Shown here: positions 53,391-59,460 of the stretch, one piece after another
How the letters are laid out: the number at the start of each line of letters is the position of its first letter
Position numbering within the stretch: the stretch's first letter is position 1
Assembly: GCA_965243135.1 (NCBI GenBank)
Contig: OZ251539.1
Location: 4,416,001-4,480,000, forward strand
Direction of reading: 5' to 3'
From: Alphaproteobacteria bacterium
GTDB taxonomy: Bacteria > Pseudomonadota > Alphaproteobacteria > MPNO01 > UBA830
DNA: 64,000 bases
Notes under the pieces: model-generated
Told to the model about the DNA's origin: nothing
The model's database searches: none
Seen by the model: the letters and a program-made list of their open reading frames with translations, nothing else
Program-made: the position numbers and the translations under genes

Positions 53391-53418
53391 ATGCGTGCAT
53401 TAACACGCATATGAGCGA
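53383..53418. promoter_or_regulatory. Perfect 15-bp-arm inverted repeat overlapping the marR start (putative MarR operator)
   Basis: TCGCTCATATGCGTG-cattaa-CACGCATATGAGCGA. Confidence 0.65.
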
Positions 53419-53572
53419 CTCGTCCATCACTTTTTGGGCGAACGACACGCCGCGGCCTTCGCGCGGCGGCGGCGGAACGTCCCGACCGGCAGGCGCGGCC
53501 GCGGGAACCGCGCTTCGACATCCCGGACCCGCCGGGATAGGCTGGCGACGCGACGGTTCGGGAGACGGCGCG

Positions 53573-54139
53573 ATGGTGAGGCTGGACAAAATATACACCG
53601 GCGGCGGCGACGCCGGCCAAACCTCGCTCGGCGACGGCGCCCGGGTTTCGAAAGCGGCGGCGCGCGTCTGCGCCCAGGGCGACATCGACGAAACCAACGC
53701 CGCGATCGGGCTCGCGCGCCGTCATGCGGCACCGGTTTCGGCGGACGAAATCCTCGCCCGCGCGCAGAACGACCTGTTCGATCTTGGCGCGGACATCGCG
53801 CGGCCCGGGCGCGACGACGCCGACGGCCGCCTTCGCGTCAAGCCGGACCAGGTCGCCCGCCTCGAACGCGAAATCGACGCGATCAACGAGGACCTCTCGC
53901 CGCTCGCCTCCTTCGTGCTGCGCGGCGGAAACGATTTCGCGGCCTCGCTCCACTACGCCTGCACGGTATGCCGGCGCGCCGAACGCGCCGCCTGCGCCCT
54001 CGCCGCCGAAGAGGAGGTCAACCCGCAAGCCCTCGCGTACCTCAACAGGTTGTCGGACCTCCTTTTCGTCATGGCGCGCGCCGCCAACGACAGCGGCAAA
54101 GCCGACGTGCTCTGGAAACCGGGCGCAACCACGAGATGA
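53573..54139 (+). CDS. PduO-type ATP:cob(I)alamin adenosyltransferase
   Basis: KIYTGGGDAGQT, GDIDETNA, QNDLFDLGAD, CRRAER, YLNRLSDLLF. Confidence 0.92.
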   Translation: MVRLDKIYTGGGDAGQTSLGDGARVSKAAARVCAQGDIDETNAAIGLARRHAAPVSADEILARAQNDLFDLGADIARPGRDDADGRLRVKPDQVARLEREIDAINEDLSPLASFVLRGGNDFAASLHYACTVCRRAERAACALAAEEEVNPQALAYLNRLSDLLFVMARAANDSGKADVLWKPGATTR

Positions 54140-54766
54140 AGCCCTTTCGGCGAAATTCCGGACGATCAGGCGAACGTCCTGCCGCGGCTTTCCGTTGTTG
54201 CAGTTCTCTTCCGGTCGACCGCGTCCCCGGCAGCTGCGGTCTCAGGGTTGTCCGACCGCTTGCGCCCATCGTCGGACGGTCGATTTCGAGCAAGGTTTTC
54301 TCTCCTGAAACGTTGATGAGTTTTCCGCCGACGCCCGCTCGGGACAAGCCCGTTTCCTGCCAGCTTGCGCAGACGGCGGCTTTCGTCAATTCCTCCCCCT
54401 CCCCCCATGTCCCGCCATGACTCCCGCTCGCAGCTTGCCCTTGATTCGCGAGGCAGCGGCACTTGCGGTTGCGGGGGTTAGGGTTCGGGACGGAGATCGC
54501 CTTGGGACAAAGTTTCCGCAAGAGACTTTCTCGCCACTCGACGAAGGCCTCGCGCCCAGCCGATATGGCGGACGTCTCCGCCGAGAAAGTCGGCCACTGC
54601 AGCTCGGTTCTCGATCTTTCCGTGACAGGTCCTTCTTTCTGCTGTATGGTATGTTCGCTCGCGTTGCTTGTTCGGCGTTTCGCCATATATTGTTCTTATA
54701 CTGCAGGAACGCCGACAGGCTAGCGGCAGTACGGCCGCAGCCAGCGAGATTGGAGACGGAAACAAC

Positions 54767-55222
54767 ATGAACAAAGACTTGGAATATTTCGTCGACGGCA
54801 AGCCGTTTTCAATTGCGAAACCGGAACCGACCGTCGCGGAAATACTGGCCCGCGCGGAGGTATCCATCCAACAGTTTTACCTTGTGTCGGCGGATGGAAC
54901 GGAATACCGCGAGCCGGACAAGACGATCAAATTACGTTCGAGCGACCGGTTCGAGACGAAAAAGCGAACGGATACGAGGCCGGTTTCTAATACCTACACC
55001 GTCAATGGAGAAATCCAGACCACGGAACGCCACTCGCTAGCCGTGGAAACGATTCTGAAAACTGCCGGCAAGGCGGCCAGCATCGACGTTACGCAAATCA
55101 ACAGTTATTTTCTTGAAAACCTCGCCGACGGCCGTAAATACGAGAAGCTTTCCGATCAGGTGGCAATCCAAGACGGCGACAAATTTCTGGCCGTTCACAT
55201 TGGAAGAACGCCGGTAGCATGA
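54767..55222 (+). CDS. Tandem ubiquitin-like (multi-ubiquitin) protein, BubA-like
   Basis: Two beta-grasp units (YFVDGKP...TVAEIL...IKLRSSDRFET; YTVNGE...AVETIL...VAIQDGDKFLAV) and C-terminal G-RTPVA. Confidence 0.78.
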   Translation: MNKDLEYFVDGKPFSIAKPEPTVAEILARAEVSIQQFYLVSADGTEYREPDKTIKLRSSDRFETKKRTDTRPVSNTYTVNGEIQTTERHSLAVETILKTAGKAASIDVTQINSYFLENLADGRKYEKLSDQVAIQDGDKFLAVHIGRTPVA

Positions 55223-55599
55223 TTCCACTCAGAGAAATCTCCTCGGAATTACGCGCTCTCGGATACCAGTCCGAGATCGTGGCAAACAGCGAGTTCGGAG
55301 GATGCAGCGCCGTCTTGTTCGATTATCCAGTCGCCACAGGCAGACACAAAAACCATACGTTCAGACTCGGCATCGGTTTCCAGGAGGAGGGATATCCGGA
55401 ATATCCGCCCCATTTCGTGTATGTTGCCGACCTTCCCAACCCGCAACTCCCGATACATACCTCTTTCCGTTACGATGATGCGGAATGGTCAGCGTTCAGC
55501 GTACCGCCCAGCGACTTCTGGGACGGCCTCCCGTTCCAAGACAAAAACATGAAGACCTACGTTTATCGGCACCTTGCAAGATTCTGGAGTCAGGTTTGA
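55219..55599 (+). CDS. E2/UBC-like protein (prokaryotic E2 family E, BubB-like)
   Basis: FDYPVATG, GYPEYPPHF, WSAFS; ATGA coupling to the Ubl gene. Confidence 0.72.
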   Translation: MIPLREISSELRALGYQSEIVANSEFGGCSAVLFDYPVATGRHKNHTFRLGIGFQEEGYPEYPPHFVYVADLPNPQLPIHTSFRYDDAEWSAFSVPPSDFWDGLPFQDKNMKTYVYRHLARFWSQV

Positions 55600-57065
55600 G
55601 GTACGATGCCGTTCTGACCGAACAAGTCCATGAAAAGGCGTGCGCGCTCCTTCTCAAGCATGCGCGGGAAGGTCAGGCGCAAGAGGAACTGTCTTTTGCC
55701 CTGTGGCGGCCGAGTACGGGGGCGACCCGGAAATCGGCCCTTATATTCGACATCATTCCACCCGCTGAAGGCGAACGTCATCTCCACGGAAACGCCAGCT
55801 TCGAGCCCGGCTACCTGACGCGCGCCATCAGACTTGCCTGCGTTGAAAAATCCGGCCTAGCGTTCATGCACAACCACCTCGCCAACGGCTGGCAGGAAAT
55901 GAGTCCCGAGGACGAAATCGCAGAAAGGGACCGCATCTCGCCGCCAGCGCGCGCATGCGGATTTCCATTGGTTGGTTTGACGTTAGGAACGGACGGTGGA
56001 TGGAGCGCTCGTTTCTGGACATGGGACGGTCGCCGCTTCAAACTATCCTGGTGCGATAAAGTCCGGGTTACCGGACGAAAACAGCGCATTACCTTCAACG
56101 ACCATAACGCGCCTCCACCTCGCCGACGCGCTATGCTGCGTAGAACCATCGACACATGGGGCGAAGCGCGACAGCACGACCTCGCCCGCCTTCGAGTCGG
56201 CGTGGTCGGCGTCGGGAGCGTAGGGTCCATGGTGGCCGAGACATTAGCAAGAATCGGTATAGAGAAGATTGTGCTCATCGACCCGGATCGGGTGGAAACG
56301 CACAATATCGACCGGTTGCTTCACGCCAGGAGGAAGGACATCGGAAAACACAAGGTGGAACTTACCGCACGATGCCTGAAGGCCGGCGCGACGGCAGAGA
56401 ACTTCGACGTATCCGTGCACAGAGAGTTCATTCAGCGAAAGAGCGCCTACCTTGCGGCTCTCGATTGCGACATCCTGTTTTCTGCGGTGGATCGTCCTCT
56501 ACCGAAGGACTTGCTGAACCGCATCGCTTACGCTCACTGCATACCGGTGATTTTCGGCGGCGTTTTCGTTGACAATAAACCCGATGGATCGTTGGGACAG
56601 GCAGCGTGGAGCGTGGTGACGGCGGGCCCCGACAGGCGCTGTCTTCGATGCGACGGCCAATATAATACTTCGGAGGTCGCGATGGAGCGGGACGGCTCTC
56701 TGGACAAGGCTAGCTACGTTCGACAAGCGGCGGCAGCGGATGGTATGCTGCCCAATCAGAACGTGTTTCCATTTAGCGCAAATCTAGCGAGCTTCATGAT
56801 AATTGAAATGGTGCGCCTCGTGGCGTCGGACGATTGGTGGCCGGACATGGGCGGTAAGCTGCACTACAGCATGATACCTAGCCGTTTGCGCACCGAGCAG
56901 GGACAATGTTCGGTCAGTTGTTCCGTCAGCAGCAGTTTGACTCTCGGGGATCTGTACCGGTATCCTTTCCTCTCCGCCGACAAGTCGATCAACCGGACAT
57001 CGAGAACCTTTCTCCGGCCTCTTAGAGAGCTGATATCGAGGTTTCCGATCAGGAGACAGCGCTGA
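55596..57065 (+). CDS. JAB peptidase-ThiF/E1 fusion (BubCD-like)
   Basis: JAB E...HNH...S..D (EELSF, FMHNHL, MSPED); E1 GVGSVG, IDPDRVETHNIDR, CLRC and CSVSC; TTGA overlap with the E2 stop. Confidence 0.85.
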   Translation: MRYDAVLTEQVHEKACALLLKHAREGQAQEELSFALWRPSTGATRKSALIFDIIPPAEGERHLHGNASFEPGYLTRAIRLACVEKSGLAFMHNHLANGWQEMSPEDEIAERDRISPPARACGFPLVGLTLGTDGGWSARFWTWDGRRFKLSWCDKVRVTGRKQRITFNDHNAPPPRRRAMLRRTIDTWGEARQHDLARLRVGVVGVGSVGSMVAETLARIGIEKIVLIDPDRVETHNIDRLLHARRKDIGKHKVELTARCLKAGATAENFDVSVHREFIQRKSAYLAALDCDILFSAVDRPLPKDLLNRIAYAHCIPVIFGGVFVDNKPDGSLGQAAWSVVTAGPDRRCLRCDGQYNTSEVAMERDGSLDKASYVRQAAAADGMLPNQNVFPFSANLASFMIIEMVRLVASDDWWPDMGGKLHYSMIPSRLRTEQGQCSVSCSVSSSLTLGDLYRYPFLSADKSINRTSRTFLRPLRELISRFPIRRQR

Positions 57066-58309
57066 TGGGAAAAATCATCGAATTTCGATTGCGGGACGTA
57101 CGATGCTTTGACGGTGAACAGTCCGCCAAACTGGGCCGAATCACCTTGCTTGTAGGCGAAAACAGTGCGGGAAAATCAACCTTCATGGGTTGTTACCAAG
57201 CCTTTGCAAAACTAGCCAATCTGCTCGATCTCGGCGAGGAAAACCATTTCAACGCTCCCCCATTCCGGATGGGTTCCTTCGGTACGGTCGTTCGAGCGGG
57301 GAAAACCGATTTCACCATCGGGGGCATCTTTGAAAATCATTGTCATACTGACGCCGCATTTACGTTCGTCGCGGGGGACGGGGACAAACCCGTTGAGCAG
57401 GAAGTTCGTTTCCGCTTCAATGACAAACAAGGCGGAAATCATGAAATCGGTATCATCCACAAGTCGCCCAAACGCGATATCTTGACATTCGAAGGGCCGA
57501 ATTTCCACTTTGATCTGGACAGAAGCGAGATCTCATATATTCCTATATCGACGTGGTTGTCACGCTATGTTCGGTTTGGCTATTTACCTTTCCGCGGCGA
57601 ACCAGCCGATTTCAGGGCGCGCAACGACGTTTCGGAAAAAGACGAAATCGAGTTCGCCAAATTCATAGGCTTCTTCCGATCAAGTTTCGACTTTCCCGGT
57701 CCCCCGCCGTTCACGGTTAACGCTCTCGATCCCCATTTCCCGGCCCGCGAACGTGTTTATTCCGCATTGCCTTCCTATCTAGAAGACCTCGAATCCGGTT
57801 TGCGATCCGAATTCGCAGCAATCGGGTCGATAATGAAACTGTGGAACGACATTACGACCGAGGCCGCCCCAGACGGCTCGCAAGTATTGGTTGACGTTGC
57901 GGGCGGCTTACGCAATCTGGTCGATGTCGGCTATGGCGTTCACAGCCTATTGCCGCTGATCAATGCCATCTTGGGATCGAAATCGGTACTGTTGCTTCAG
58001 CAGCCGGAGATTCATGTCCATCCGATGGCGCAAGCCCGTTTGGCGCAGTTTATGGCTGAAAATGATCGAGACTTTATCATCGAAACGCATAGCGAACACT
58101 TTGTGGACCGCTTCAGGATATGCGTCATGGACGGCATTCTGCGGCCGGAGGATCTGTCCATCGTTTACTTTGAACCTCATGCGGACGGAACGAAGTGTCG
58201 AATTCACAGCATTTCCGTGGATGCTGAAGCTAATTTGTTGGACGTGCCAAAGAGTTATAGATCATTCTTCGTTGAGGAGACCGAGCGGTTGTTGGGTCTA
58301 GAAAGGTGA
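57065..58309 (+). CDS. ABC/AAA_21-type ATPase (DUF3696-like)
   Basis: LLVGENSAGKST, VDVGYGV signature, LLLQQPEIHVHP, IIETHSEH; TGATG overlap with the E1 stop. Confidence 0.85.
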   Translation: MGKIIEFRLRDVRCFDGEQSAKLGRITLLVGENSAGKSTFMGCYQAFAKLANLLDLGEENHFNAPPFRMGSFGTVVRAGKTDFTIGGIFENHCHTDAAFTFVAGDGDKPVEQEVRFRFNDKQGGNHEIGIIHKSPKRDILTFEGPNFHFDLDRSEISYIPISTWLSRYVRFGYLPFRGEPADFRARNDVSEKDEIEFAKFIGFFRSSFDFPGPPPFTVNALDPHFPARERVYSALPSYLEDLESGLRSEFAAIGSIMKLWNDITTEAAPDGSQVLVDVAGGLRNLVDVGYGVHSLLPLINAILGSKSVLLLQQPEIHVHPMAQARLAQFMAENDRDFIIETHSEHFVDRFRICVMDGILRPEDLSIVYFEPHADGTKCRIHSISVDAEANLLDVPKSYRSFFVEETERLLGLER

Positions 58310-58315
58310 GAATTT

Positions 58316-58783
58316 ATGTGCATGAAGATCATCATAGATGCATGTGCATTTGGCAGTGTCTTGGATAGCGACAGAGATTCCATCTTGCGCAAATGGATCG
58401 ACAATCGAAATTGTATCGTCGTATACACGGAATCAGGAACCTATGGGGAGGAATTACGCGGAAGCCGCAGGATGCTGCGACTGTTTGGGGAATATCGCCG
58501 CAACGGCTCTGCGGAACTTGTGGATAATAACAGATTGCGGGCTGTAGCAGGGGCGTTGCAAAATAAGGTTGTTCGCTCGAACGACGAACACATATTGCAT
58601 CTGGCCTTGGCCAGCAAAGCGCTGATGCTACGAACGGAAGAACGCGCAAATTTACGGGCAGATTTTGTCGATAAAGATTTGTTGCCGAAAATCGGCAGGA
58701 AAAAGCGCGCCGTATACCCGGAAAGCGGATCTCCGAGGGTCAAGCGACAGTTTCTTGATCGAAGAAGATGCCCCAGCACATGA
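58316..58783 (+). CDS. PIN-like domain protein (putative RNase)
   Basis: IIIDAC, EEL, SNDEHILHLALAS, LRTEE acidic pattern. Confidence 0.6.
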   Translation: MCMKIIIDACAFGSVLDSDRDSILRKWIDNRNCIVVYTESGTYGEELRGSRRMLRLFGEYRRNGSAELVDNNRLRAVAGALQNKVVRSNDEHILHLALASKALMLRTEERANLRADFVDKDLLPKIGRKKRAVYPESGSPRVKRQFLDRRRCPST

Positions 58784-59085
58784 AGCTGAATGGCTGCCGG
58801 TTGGAAAATTGTCGCCTGCTACCTACATGTTCGTGTATCCGTGGGCGGCCGTTTATCCGAAACGTTCGACTGGTCGAGAAGGAGGTCGCGTTGGAGGCGG
58901 ACATTGTTCCGTTCTCTTTTCCGCGCATTTCTCCGAGAACGACCGCGCCATCGTCGAGATTTGTCCGATTCCGTCTTTCGGTTGCGCTTTCAACCCGACA
59001 GGAAGCGTTGAATTCGTTCGGGAAGAAATGGTAAGTGAAACCAGACCGCGGCGCGGGACGACAAGGCGATCAAGGAGGGCATGGA

Positions 59086-59460
59086 ATGACAACGACGTTT
59101 CTCGGACTCAGGACCACGATCTACAAGGTCGGCGACCTTGATCGCGCCAAGGAATGGTATGCCGAAGCGTTCGGCGTCGAACCGTATTTCGACCAGCCGT
59201 CCTATGTCGGCTTCAGCGTCAGGGGATACGAGCTCGGCCTGATGCCCGACGACGGAACGCCTGCGGACAAGCCCGACAACGTGCTTAGCTACTGGGGCGT
59301 GGAGAATATCCGCGAAGAGACCGGCAGGCTGATCGCGCTTGGAGCGACCGAGCACGAAAAACCGGTCAACGTGGGCGGAGAAATCATGGTGGCGTCCGTC
59401 CGGGATCCCTGGGGCAACGTGATCGGCCTGATCCGCAATCCCGAGTTCAAGGCCGAATGA
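59086..59460 (+). CDS. VOC/glyoxalase family protein
   Basis: DLDRAKEWY, YVGFSVRGYELGL, DPWGNVIGL. Confidence 0.88.
   Translation: MTTTFLGLRTTIYKVGDLDRAKEWYAEAFGVEPYFDQPSYVGFSVRGYELGLMPDDGTPADKPDNVLSYWGVENIREETGRLIALGATEHEKPVNVGGEIMVASVRDPWGNVIGLIRNPEFKAE

Follow-up and report, generated by a model that had tools for sequence, protein, structure and literature searches.

We analysed a 64,000-nucleotide (nt) stretch of an alphaproteobacterial genome (GenBank assembly GCA_965243135.1, contig OZ251539.1, positions 4,416,001 to 4,480,000; hereafter "the window"), focusing on five consecutive forward-strand genes that encode a ubiquitin-like protein (Ubl), an E2-like protein, a fusion of a JAB/JAMM peptidase to an E1 enzyme (JAB-E1), an ABC-type ATPase and a PIN-domain protein (Table 1). 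A first-pass annotation made from the sequence alone had described them as five same-strand genes at 54767-58783, tightly joined and AT-richer than their surroundings, and the open reading frames (ORFs), the junctions and the GC profile all bear this out. Its domain labels (tandem Ubl, E2-like, JAB-E1, AAA_21/ABC ATPase and PIN-like) likewise hold for each of the five proteins.

As read from the sequence, the Ubl and E2 genes overlap in ATGA (55219-55222), the E2 and JAB-E1 genes in TTGA (55596-55599), and the JAB-E1 and ATPase genes meet in TGATG (57063-57067), while a 6-nt gap (58310-58315) separates the ATPase gene from the PIN gene. The GC content is 0.49-0.60 across about 54500-59000 compared to 0.63-0.72 on both sides (500-nt windows), and within the analysed stretch this drop coincides exactly with the five-gene span. 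The flanking genes have housekeeping functions (a cobalamin adenosyltransferase at 53411-54139 and a glyoxalase at 59035-59460). No tRNA gene was found in 40000-64000 and no convincing direct or inverted repeats flank the island borders, where promoter and terminator matches are at consensus level only. The likeliest explanation is that the five genes are a foreign-looking, horizontally acquired cassette.

Table 1. Features of the cassette in the window, and a related ORF flanking the cassette at three other loci (coordinates given within each locus).
Feature	Position	Strand	Basis
Ubiquitin-like protein (Ubl), 151 amino acids (aa)	54767-55222	+	AlphaFold2 (AF2) model, Foldseek
E2-like protein, Prok-E2_E type, 126 aa	55219-55599	+	Family profile against PDB and Pfam
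JAB/JAMM peptidase-E1 fusion, 489 aa, TTG start	55596-57065	+	Pfam ThiF, PDB BubCD
ABC-type ATPase, NsnB-like, 414 aa	57065-58309	+	Pfam AAA_21, PADLOC NsnB
PIN-domain protein, 155 aa, probable nuclease effector	58316-58783	+	AF2 model, Pfam PIN matches of the family
Low-GC island, ~4.5 kb, exactly the five genes	about 54500-59050		GC windows
Related flanking ORF	L011:9815-10363		
Related flanking ORF	L012:4719-5552		
Related flanking ORF	L085:2776-3903		

The five proteins and their nearest relatives

Pfam ThiF matches the JAB-E1 protein at 7.8e-31, and its best PDB match is Citrobacter BubCD (9ea4; 8.6e-18 with both domains covered, and 4.6e-21 in a profile search). The JAMM residues E30, H92, H94, S103 and D106 are invariant in all nine aligned orthologues from linked loci, i.e., loci at which the Ubl, E2 and JAB-E1 genes stand together with the ATPase gene, as are the zinc-knuckle cysteines (C349xxC352 and C438xxxC442) and the tyrosines Y356 and Y374. 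None of the nine sequences has a cysteine between the knuckles (residues 353-437), the usual place of E1 catalytic cysteines. Alignments to BubCD end at JAB-E1 residues 330-334, short of the crossover loop (Y370 in BubCD). Cysteine-free oxyester chemistry has been shown for the Bub system (formerly 6E.1/DUF6527; BubAB, BubCD and BubE) in the available text of its description (Ye et al., bioRxiv 10.1101/2024.11.21.623953). A JAB-E1 that lacks inter-knuckle cysteines matches this chemistry, which we predict for the cassette enzyme.

The alignment-based AF2 model of the Ubl (pLDDT, the predicted score of the local distance difference test, 92.1) contains two beta-grasp domains and is matched best in Foldseek by solved multi-ubiquitin proteins of bacteria (9cd2 at 3.6e-9, then 9d5a and 8u38), with linear di-ubiquitin and ISG15 next in rank. 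Pfam Multi_ubiq reaches the protein at 0.0042, under the family cut-off, and a single-sequence PDB search with it gave no match. The window copy, with its C-terminus at 55199-55219, ends in ...HIGRTPVA, without Gly-Gly, and 38 of the 40 family members aligned have V(S/A) at the end or 2-7 residues before it. In the wider three-gene family (loci L085-L164), Ubls end in PTPV(S/A) and a few extend 2-7 residues further. These ends imply that the E1 would activate a non-glycine Ubl C-terminus, after the JAB domain has trimmed the protein to Ser or Ala.

The E2-like protein of the window has no Pfam match of its own, Prok-E2_E included, and a single-sequence PDB search returned only Rad6-type E2s at E 0.08-1. 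Prok-E2_E is, however, matched by 45 of the 56 family members, the window copy lying below detection, and the profile of all 56 has Citrobacter BubB as its best PDB match (E 0.005). This profile alignment places the Ser94 column on the Ser of the BubB WSRH motif. Conservation is high at S94 and W90 (55/56 each) and at W101 (54/56), whereas the sole cysteine of the window copy is not conserved in the family. We consider Ser94 a candidate catalytic residue. In the local alignment, which is of low confidence, the FSVPP motif at Ser94 is not followed by a His such as H335, which accompanies the Ser in BubB, and column 68 falls three columns past BubB D299 (counted back from S333), opposite a BubB Tyr.

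For the ATPase, Pfam matches were to AAA_21 (2.2e-15) and AAA_15 (3.1e-9), and PADLOC matches to NsnB (the best, 9.6e-36), PDC-M55A (4.4e-23) and HEC-03B (1.9e-17); the HEC-03 ATPase model covers C-terminal residues 277-397 only and is strongly outscored by NsnB. The AriA model, over the span of the generic AAA_21 profile, matches at 2.1e-17. DUF3696 was detected in 11 of 32 close homologues and not in the window copy (E<=0.01). Walker A is intact (GENSAGKST), whereas the Walker B site reads LLLQQPE instead of hhhhDE (57995-58015, residues 310-315), and this Gln-Gln in place of Asp-Glu is conserved family-wide, in linked and unlinked ATPase clades alike. An E-to-Q replacement in Walker B is the classic hydrolysis-dead change. 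With such a natural QQ Walker B, the ATPase probably works as a switch that binds ATP and not as a fast hydrolase. The linked and unlinked clades have the nucleotide-binding motifs in common but differ in their pattern of conservation over residues ~50-280; this remodelled insert suggests that the linked ATPases have adapted to a new partner or trigger.

The AF2 model of the PIN protein (pLDDT 95.5) was matched in a wide VIA-align search to 1y82 (Z 8.9), VapC 5x3t (8.5) and Nmd4 (8.4), and nearly all of its top 25 structural matches are PIN proteins (Z 7-8.9), mostly VapC. Foldseek found nothing for the model at E<=0.001, the profile reached PDB sequences only with a VapC at E 0.42, and the window protein has no match of its own in the domain and defence libraries. 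Pfam PIN (PF01850) is nonetheless matched by 34 of 68 family members (best 4.2e-9), and the paralogous PIN partner encoded in the same genome clears the Pfam cut-off. D8 is invariant in the family, and E46, D90, D109 and D116 are each at least 90% conserved; the window copy retains D8, E46, D90 and D116. The family thus looks catalytically competent, unlike the PIN-like domain of NsnC, and would be expected to have nuclease activity. A profile search of 1.84 billion representatives gave 2135 matches at E<=0.001; the best 150 of these include no fusion, every one being a separate protein of 137-185 aa. The family also starts with Met-Cys in 68/68 members (window 58316-58321, residues 1-2) and has a near-invariant C152 close to the C-terminus (window 58769-58771); these cysteines could bind a metal, form a disulfide or, at the N-terminus, be exposed.

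The first-pass annotation had called the locus Bub-like, and homology supports the label. As in type I Bub, the JAB domain is fused N-terminally to a single-domain E1 whose nearest solved relative is BubCD, the E2 family profile matches BubB with the catalytic Ser aligned and most members carry Prok-E2_E, the Ubl has a multi-beta-grasp fold nearest to the solved Bub multi-ubiquitin proteins, and neither the E2 nor the crossover region of the E1 has a conserved catalytic Cys. All Bub operons encode BubE, a DUF6527 serine protease, according to the available text of the Bub preprint (bioRxiv 10.1101/2024.11.21.623953), whereas a BubE/DUF6527 match was found in none of the five window proteins. 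Furthermore, the Ubl and E2 come from two ORFs that overlap in ATGA rather than from a BubAB-like fusion, the Ubl ends in PTPV(S/A) instead of the conserved C-terminal glycine of Bub Ubls, and translationally coupled ATPase and PIN genes follow downstream. The lack of BubE, the unfused Ubl and E2 and the non-glycine Ubl end rule out canonical Bub membership.

Bil (BilABCD) also has a one-operon Ubl/E2/JAB/E1 set and a di-beta-grasp, ISG15-like Ubl. It differs in having a separate JAB gene, a tandem-adenylation E1 with a catalytic-cysteine domain and thioester chemistry, as summarized in the accessible part of the same preprint (bioRxiv 10.1101/2024.11.21.623953). By contrast, the cassette encodes a single-domain E1 with the JAB fused to it and lacks a conserved catalytic cysteine, and Bil membership is ruled out on these grounds.

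For the downstream pair, the comparison originally offered was with PARIS AriA/AriB, in which an ABC ATPase likewise pairs with a nuclease from a gene of its own. In the cassette the ATPase stands beside a PIN protein, and no TOPRIM/AriB-like match was found among the five proteins. PARIS membership is therefore ruled out, and HEC-03 and Menshen NsnB-NsnC are the better comparators.

HEC-03 (Hma-embedded candidate 03) has the same two-gene ABC ATPase and PIN architecture. It is reported, in the part of its description available to us, to pair an ABC ATPase with a VapC-like PIN protein and to protect Escherichia coli from phages, both genes being required (Payne et al., bioRxiv 10.1101/2024.01.29.577857). 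PADLOC HEC-03 models match none of the 68 PIN family members, however, and that description includes no conjugation module.

Resemblance to Menshen lies in the ATPase, with NsnB as its best PADLOC match, an AAA_15/AAA_21 plus DUF3696 architecture in its homologues, and a degenerate Walker B and GxG signature motif as in NsnB. It extends to gene order, which runs in both from an upstream module to the ATPase and then to a protein with a PIN-like domain. In Menshen, NsnB has been predicted to grip NsnC at its PIN-like domain by means of the C-terminal DUF3696 domain, according to the accessible text of Li et al. (NAR 2025, PMC12065111). The cassette differs in several respects: Ubl-E2-JAB/E1 takes the slot of NsnA, a ParB-DUF262/ParBDB domain being present in none of the five proteins; its PIN protein retains acidic catalytic residues, whereas the PIN of NsnC is described as inactive; its PIN family (137-185 aa) lacks the C-terminal nuclease domain of NsnC; and the Walker B residues are QQ rather than the EN of NsnB.

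Recurrence and inheritance of the gene set

To place the cassette among its relatives, we followed each half separately. The ATPase-side scan, with one genome per species, yielded at least 580 relatives, of which the best 79 loci were kept. All five genes occur in order at eight of the 79 genome loci (L006-L009 and L011-L014), labelled Gammaproteobacteria, Paracoccaceae, Acidobacteriota and Gemmatimonadota. A ninth locus, L053 (Binatia), is a decayed copy with a short Ubl, an internal deletion or truncation of the ATPase and no PIN match. Among the 77 loci with a callable ATPase ORF, 71 have an ORF of 110-210 aa that starts between -70 and +100 nt from the ATPase stop. The neighbours of unlinked ATPase-PIN loci (214 ORFs) fall into 185 clusters, and synteny there is local, among close relatives only.

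The JAB-E1-side search gave 80 metagenome loci. The ATPase is carried by all eight loci with JAB-E1 at 55-63% identity, four of which (L086-L089) are near-identical copies. Six of the eight also have the PIN gene, and the other two contigs stop inside the ATPase. Thus, the chance adjacency that the first-pass annotation had tied to the two halves never co-occurring elsewhere is not what we find.

Junctions were measured at 12 of the 16 listed linked loci. The 4-nt overlap between E2 and JAB-E1 is present in 12/12, the spacing between JAB-E1 and ATPase ranges only from -4 to +5 nt in the same 12, and at no linked locus does a gene stand between the two halves. The surroundings, on the other hand, are not shared: no flanking gene is common across the 12 linked loci, and only a close trio (L011, L012 and L085) has flanks in common.

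Phylogenies were built for the ATPase (82 rows, L047 and L053 being absent) and for JAB-E1 (72 rows, the frameshifted L008 being left out). In the ATPase tree, the 12 linked rows and L010 form one clade (support by the Shimodaira-Hasegawa-like approximate likelihood ratio test, SH-aLRT, 100) on a stem of length 1.79. The 13 linked rows of the JAB-E1 tree also form one clade (support 99), and linkage requires only 1 change on that tree. Three subgroups are identical in the two trees, and the linked set spans at least four phyla. One clade for each half, together with the matching subgroups, indicates that the modules were joined once, and that the resulting five-gene cassette has since diversified and crossed between phyla. 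The five genes are inherited as a unit and are not a chance neighbourhood, as the first-pass annotation had proposed in treating them as one system. The single joining argues against chance adjacency, although it does not by itself imply that the proteins interact.

Function of the composite cassette

On balance, we favour the view that the five genes make up one composite, integrated cassette of defence type, most probably directed against phages or mobile elements, in which a Bub-like conjugation module stands upstream of a HEC-03/Menshen-like, ATPase-gated PIN effector. Gene order would allow conjugation to gate the nuclease, or the ATPase-PIN pair to guard the conjugation machinery. Because the gene order is Menshen-like and HEC-03 is a complete ATPase-PIN anti-phage system, we prefer the direction in which the Bub-like module is the trigger or regulator and the ATPase-PIN pair the effector.

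In such a system, the JAB domain would trim the Ubl, where needed, to its ...TPV(A/S) end, and the E1 domain would adenylate the trimmed end. The Ubl would then pass through oxyester intermediates, from a Tyr or Ser of the E1 crossover loop to Ser94 of the E2, and on to a target. The NsnB-like ATPase, acting as an ATP-binding switch, would hold the small PIN nuclease. The conjugation module would occupy the sensor or trigger slot that the ParB-DUF262 protein NsnA holds in Menshen, with the ATPase as transducer and the PIN protein as an RNA-cutting effector directed against a phage or mobile element; the remodelled ATPase insert would be the likely contact point between the halves. We suggest, more tentatively, that Ubl conjugation itself triggers the nuclease: on infection the E2 might tag a phage protein or the ATPase-PIN complex, the ATPase insert might read the tag, and the PIN RNase might be released or switched on.

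A number of observations weigh against an integrated cassette. Neither half generally needs the other, each being common alone: 69 of the 79 genome loci carry the ATPase without Ubl, E2 or E1, most with a PIN-family ORF directly after it, and 72 of the 80 metagenome loci (JAB-E1 identity 39-52%) have Ubl and E2, with ATPase or PIN in none. L010 carries a linked-type ATPase-PIN pair, placed within the linked ATPase clade, without the Ubl module. The genome of the window itself encodes homologues of the separate parts (an ATPase-PIN pair that stands alone, a second core of three genes and a Bub operon of canonical type with DUF6527). Searches among longer homologues (JAB-E1 of 857-2445 aa and PIN of 273-2000 aa, E<=0.001) found no fusion joining the halves, an absence that is weak evidence. 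At the level of residues, the QQ Walker B may mean that ATP is not hydrolysed, the window PIN copy has Glu (E108/E109) and one inserted residue at the position that is Asp109 in 97% of the family, and E2 column 68, a His in 51 of 56 members, is a Tyr in the window copy and three relatives. A listing of RNA data for 54600-58900 yielded no entry. In addition, phage protection by a Bub operon has so far not been shown, as far as the accessible parts of two studies go (bioRxiv 10.1101/2024.11.21.623953; PMC13373217). A predicted complex of ATPase, PIN and E2 scored 0.00 against a mark of 0.32 and weighs neither way.

Several of these points are what one would expect if two autonomous systems share a transcription unit, having been joined once and having travelled together since, with no contact or regulation between them and with protection that is at most additive or synergistic. 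We regard this, the main rival explanation, as possible but doubtful. Both modules are widespread alone, the linked-clade ATPase-PIN pair at L010 lacks a Ubl module, searches revealed no Rosetta-stone fusion, and HEC-03 functions as two genes in what is available of its description. Simple cohabitation accounts less well for a single origin with matching tree subgroups across at least four phyla, for a JAB-E1/ATPase stop/start overlap or near-overlap retained in 12/12 loci, for halves never separated by an inserted gene, and for the long stem (1.79) and remodelled insert of the linked ATPase clade.

The resemblance of the PIN protein to VapC raises another explanation, addiction, in which the ATPase-PIN pair would stabilize the mobile cassette in its host as a toxin-antitoxin-like module and take no part in the conjugation pathway. 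PIN proteins are well known as VapC-type toxins, and VapC makes up most of the structural matches; Pfam annotates AAA_21 as a putative AbiEii/type IV toxin-antitoxin domain, the cassette is horizontally mobile, and HEC-03 was toxic when induced in the portion of the study at hand (bioRxiv 10.1101/2024.01.29.577857). An addiction role nevertheless seems very unlikely to us: at 69 loci the pair stands alone with no recurrent cargo adjoining, the other 72 three-gene cores have spread without an ATPase-PIN pair, and co-diversification and a remodelled ATPase insert would be unexpected for a generic module.

Similarly improbable, in our view, is a non-immune role as a stress-response or RNA-turnover regulator of symbiotic bacteria, with the Ubl marking host proteins under stress and the ATPase-PIN pair trimming specific RNAs. 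Defence or mobile cargo typically shows such a patchy horizontal distribution and such a low-GC island, and HEC-03, the nearest characterized ATPase-PIN architecture, is a validated anti-phage system as far as its accessible description goes. These observations have to be set against the housekeeping genes, rather than a defence island, that surround the cassette in the window, the many ATPase-PIN holders labelled Poribacteria or other sponge-named taxa, and the statement of the Bub authors, in the text available, that phage defence by Bub operons has not been shown and that these may be stress pathways. According to the same available text, however, DNA-damage regulators shared with immune systems often control Bub operons (bioRxiv 10.1101/2024.11.21.623953).

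That this five-gene architecture is undescribed, as the first-pass annotation had supposed, agrees with our literature searches. The combination was not found in the Bub preprint, which never mentions an ATPase, PIN or nuclease (bioRxiv 10.1101/2024.11.21.623953; supplementary operon tables not covered), nor in the Menshen paper, which never mentions ubiquitin, JAB or Bub (PMC12065111; supplementary tables not covered). It was likewise not found in the available text of the CapK/CapS paper (PMC13373217), the HEC paper and Iyer et al. (2006), or in full-text literature searches.

Bub-type pathways have been characterized biochemically, whereas their biological role is open and no targets are known, to the extent that the accessible parts of the two reports cover this (bioRxiv 10.1101/2024.11.21.623953; PMC13373217). 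The cassette may reveal what such a poorly understood tagging pathway controls. A conjugation machine co-inherited with what would be an ATPase-gated nuclease offers an assayable output (RNA cleavage, toxicity or phage restriction), and the ATPase and the PIN protein make a short list of candidate targets or readers. If Ubl conjugation is indeed the trigger, the cassette would represent the first ubiquitin-like pathway of bacteria to have a dedicated effector output that is genetically hard-wired, and its Ubl would be activated at a C-terminal Ala or Ser, not Gly, by cysteine-free chemistry. A Menshen relative with a predicted active PIN and no NsnA also bears on the evolution of Menshen, and a Ubl family with a non-glycine C-terminus is of further interest.

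Related operons and variant loci

The three sets of homologues in the same genome lie outside the window. The canonical Bub-type operon (L174:2666-5585; C1 ~54.7-57.6 kb) encodes a Multi_ubiq protein (263 aa), a Prok-E2_E protein (129 aa, 1.4e-26), a Prok-JAB plus ThiF fusion (463 aa) and a DUF6527 protein (153 aa); its Ubl and E2 are unfused as well. A whole-genome search with PF20137 found DUF6527 in one copy only (C1:57354-57533), 4.4 Mb from the window cassette.

The second Ubl/E2-like/JAB-E1 core (L172:4306-7548; C1 ~5.798-5.802 Mb) was recognized by the JAB-E1 profile at E 1e-168. It has no ATPase-PIN pair, and a DUF2971 protein follows it. Its JAB-E1 groups, on a long branch, with the sister clade of the linked JAB-E1s. 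The stand-alone ATPase-PIN pair (L173:4383-6171; C1 ~4.576-4.578 Mb) lies ~100 kb past the window, with genes 1 nt apart that encode an ATPase of 438 aa (34% identical) and a PIN protein of 156 aa; the ATPase falls in the unlinked part of the ATPase tree.

Besides L053, two other linked copies look damaged: JAB-E1 is split over two frames at L008:6521-8001, and the Ubl of L014:5687-6514 was matched in its C-terminal half only. These copies (including L053:5988-8994) could reflect decay or assembly error. Within the trio that shares flanks, a related ORF (183-376 aa; Table 1) lies downstream of the cassette at one locus and upstream of it at the two close relatives, and is possibly a gene of a mobile element, travelling with the cassette or next to it.

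Many of the 79 ATPase-PIN loci come from metagenome-assembled genomes labelled Poribacteria, Caldilineaceae or Dehalococcoidia, or with sponge-derived names such as Spongiisociaceae and Porisulfidus. Two sponge-metagenome runs contain 0.23-0.25 of the words of the window.

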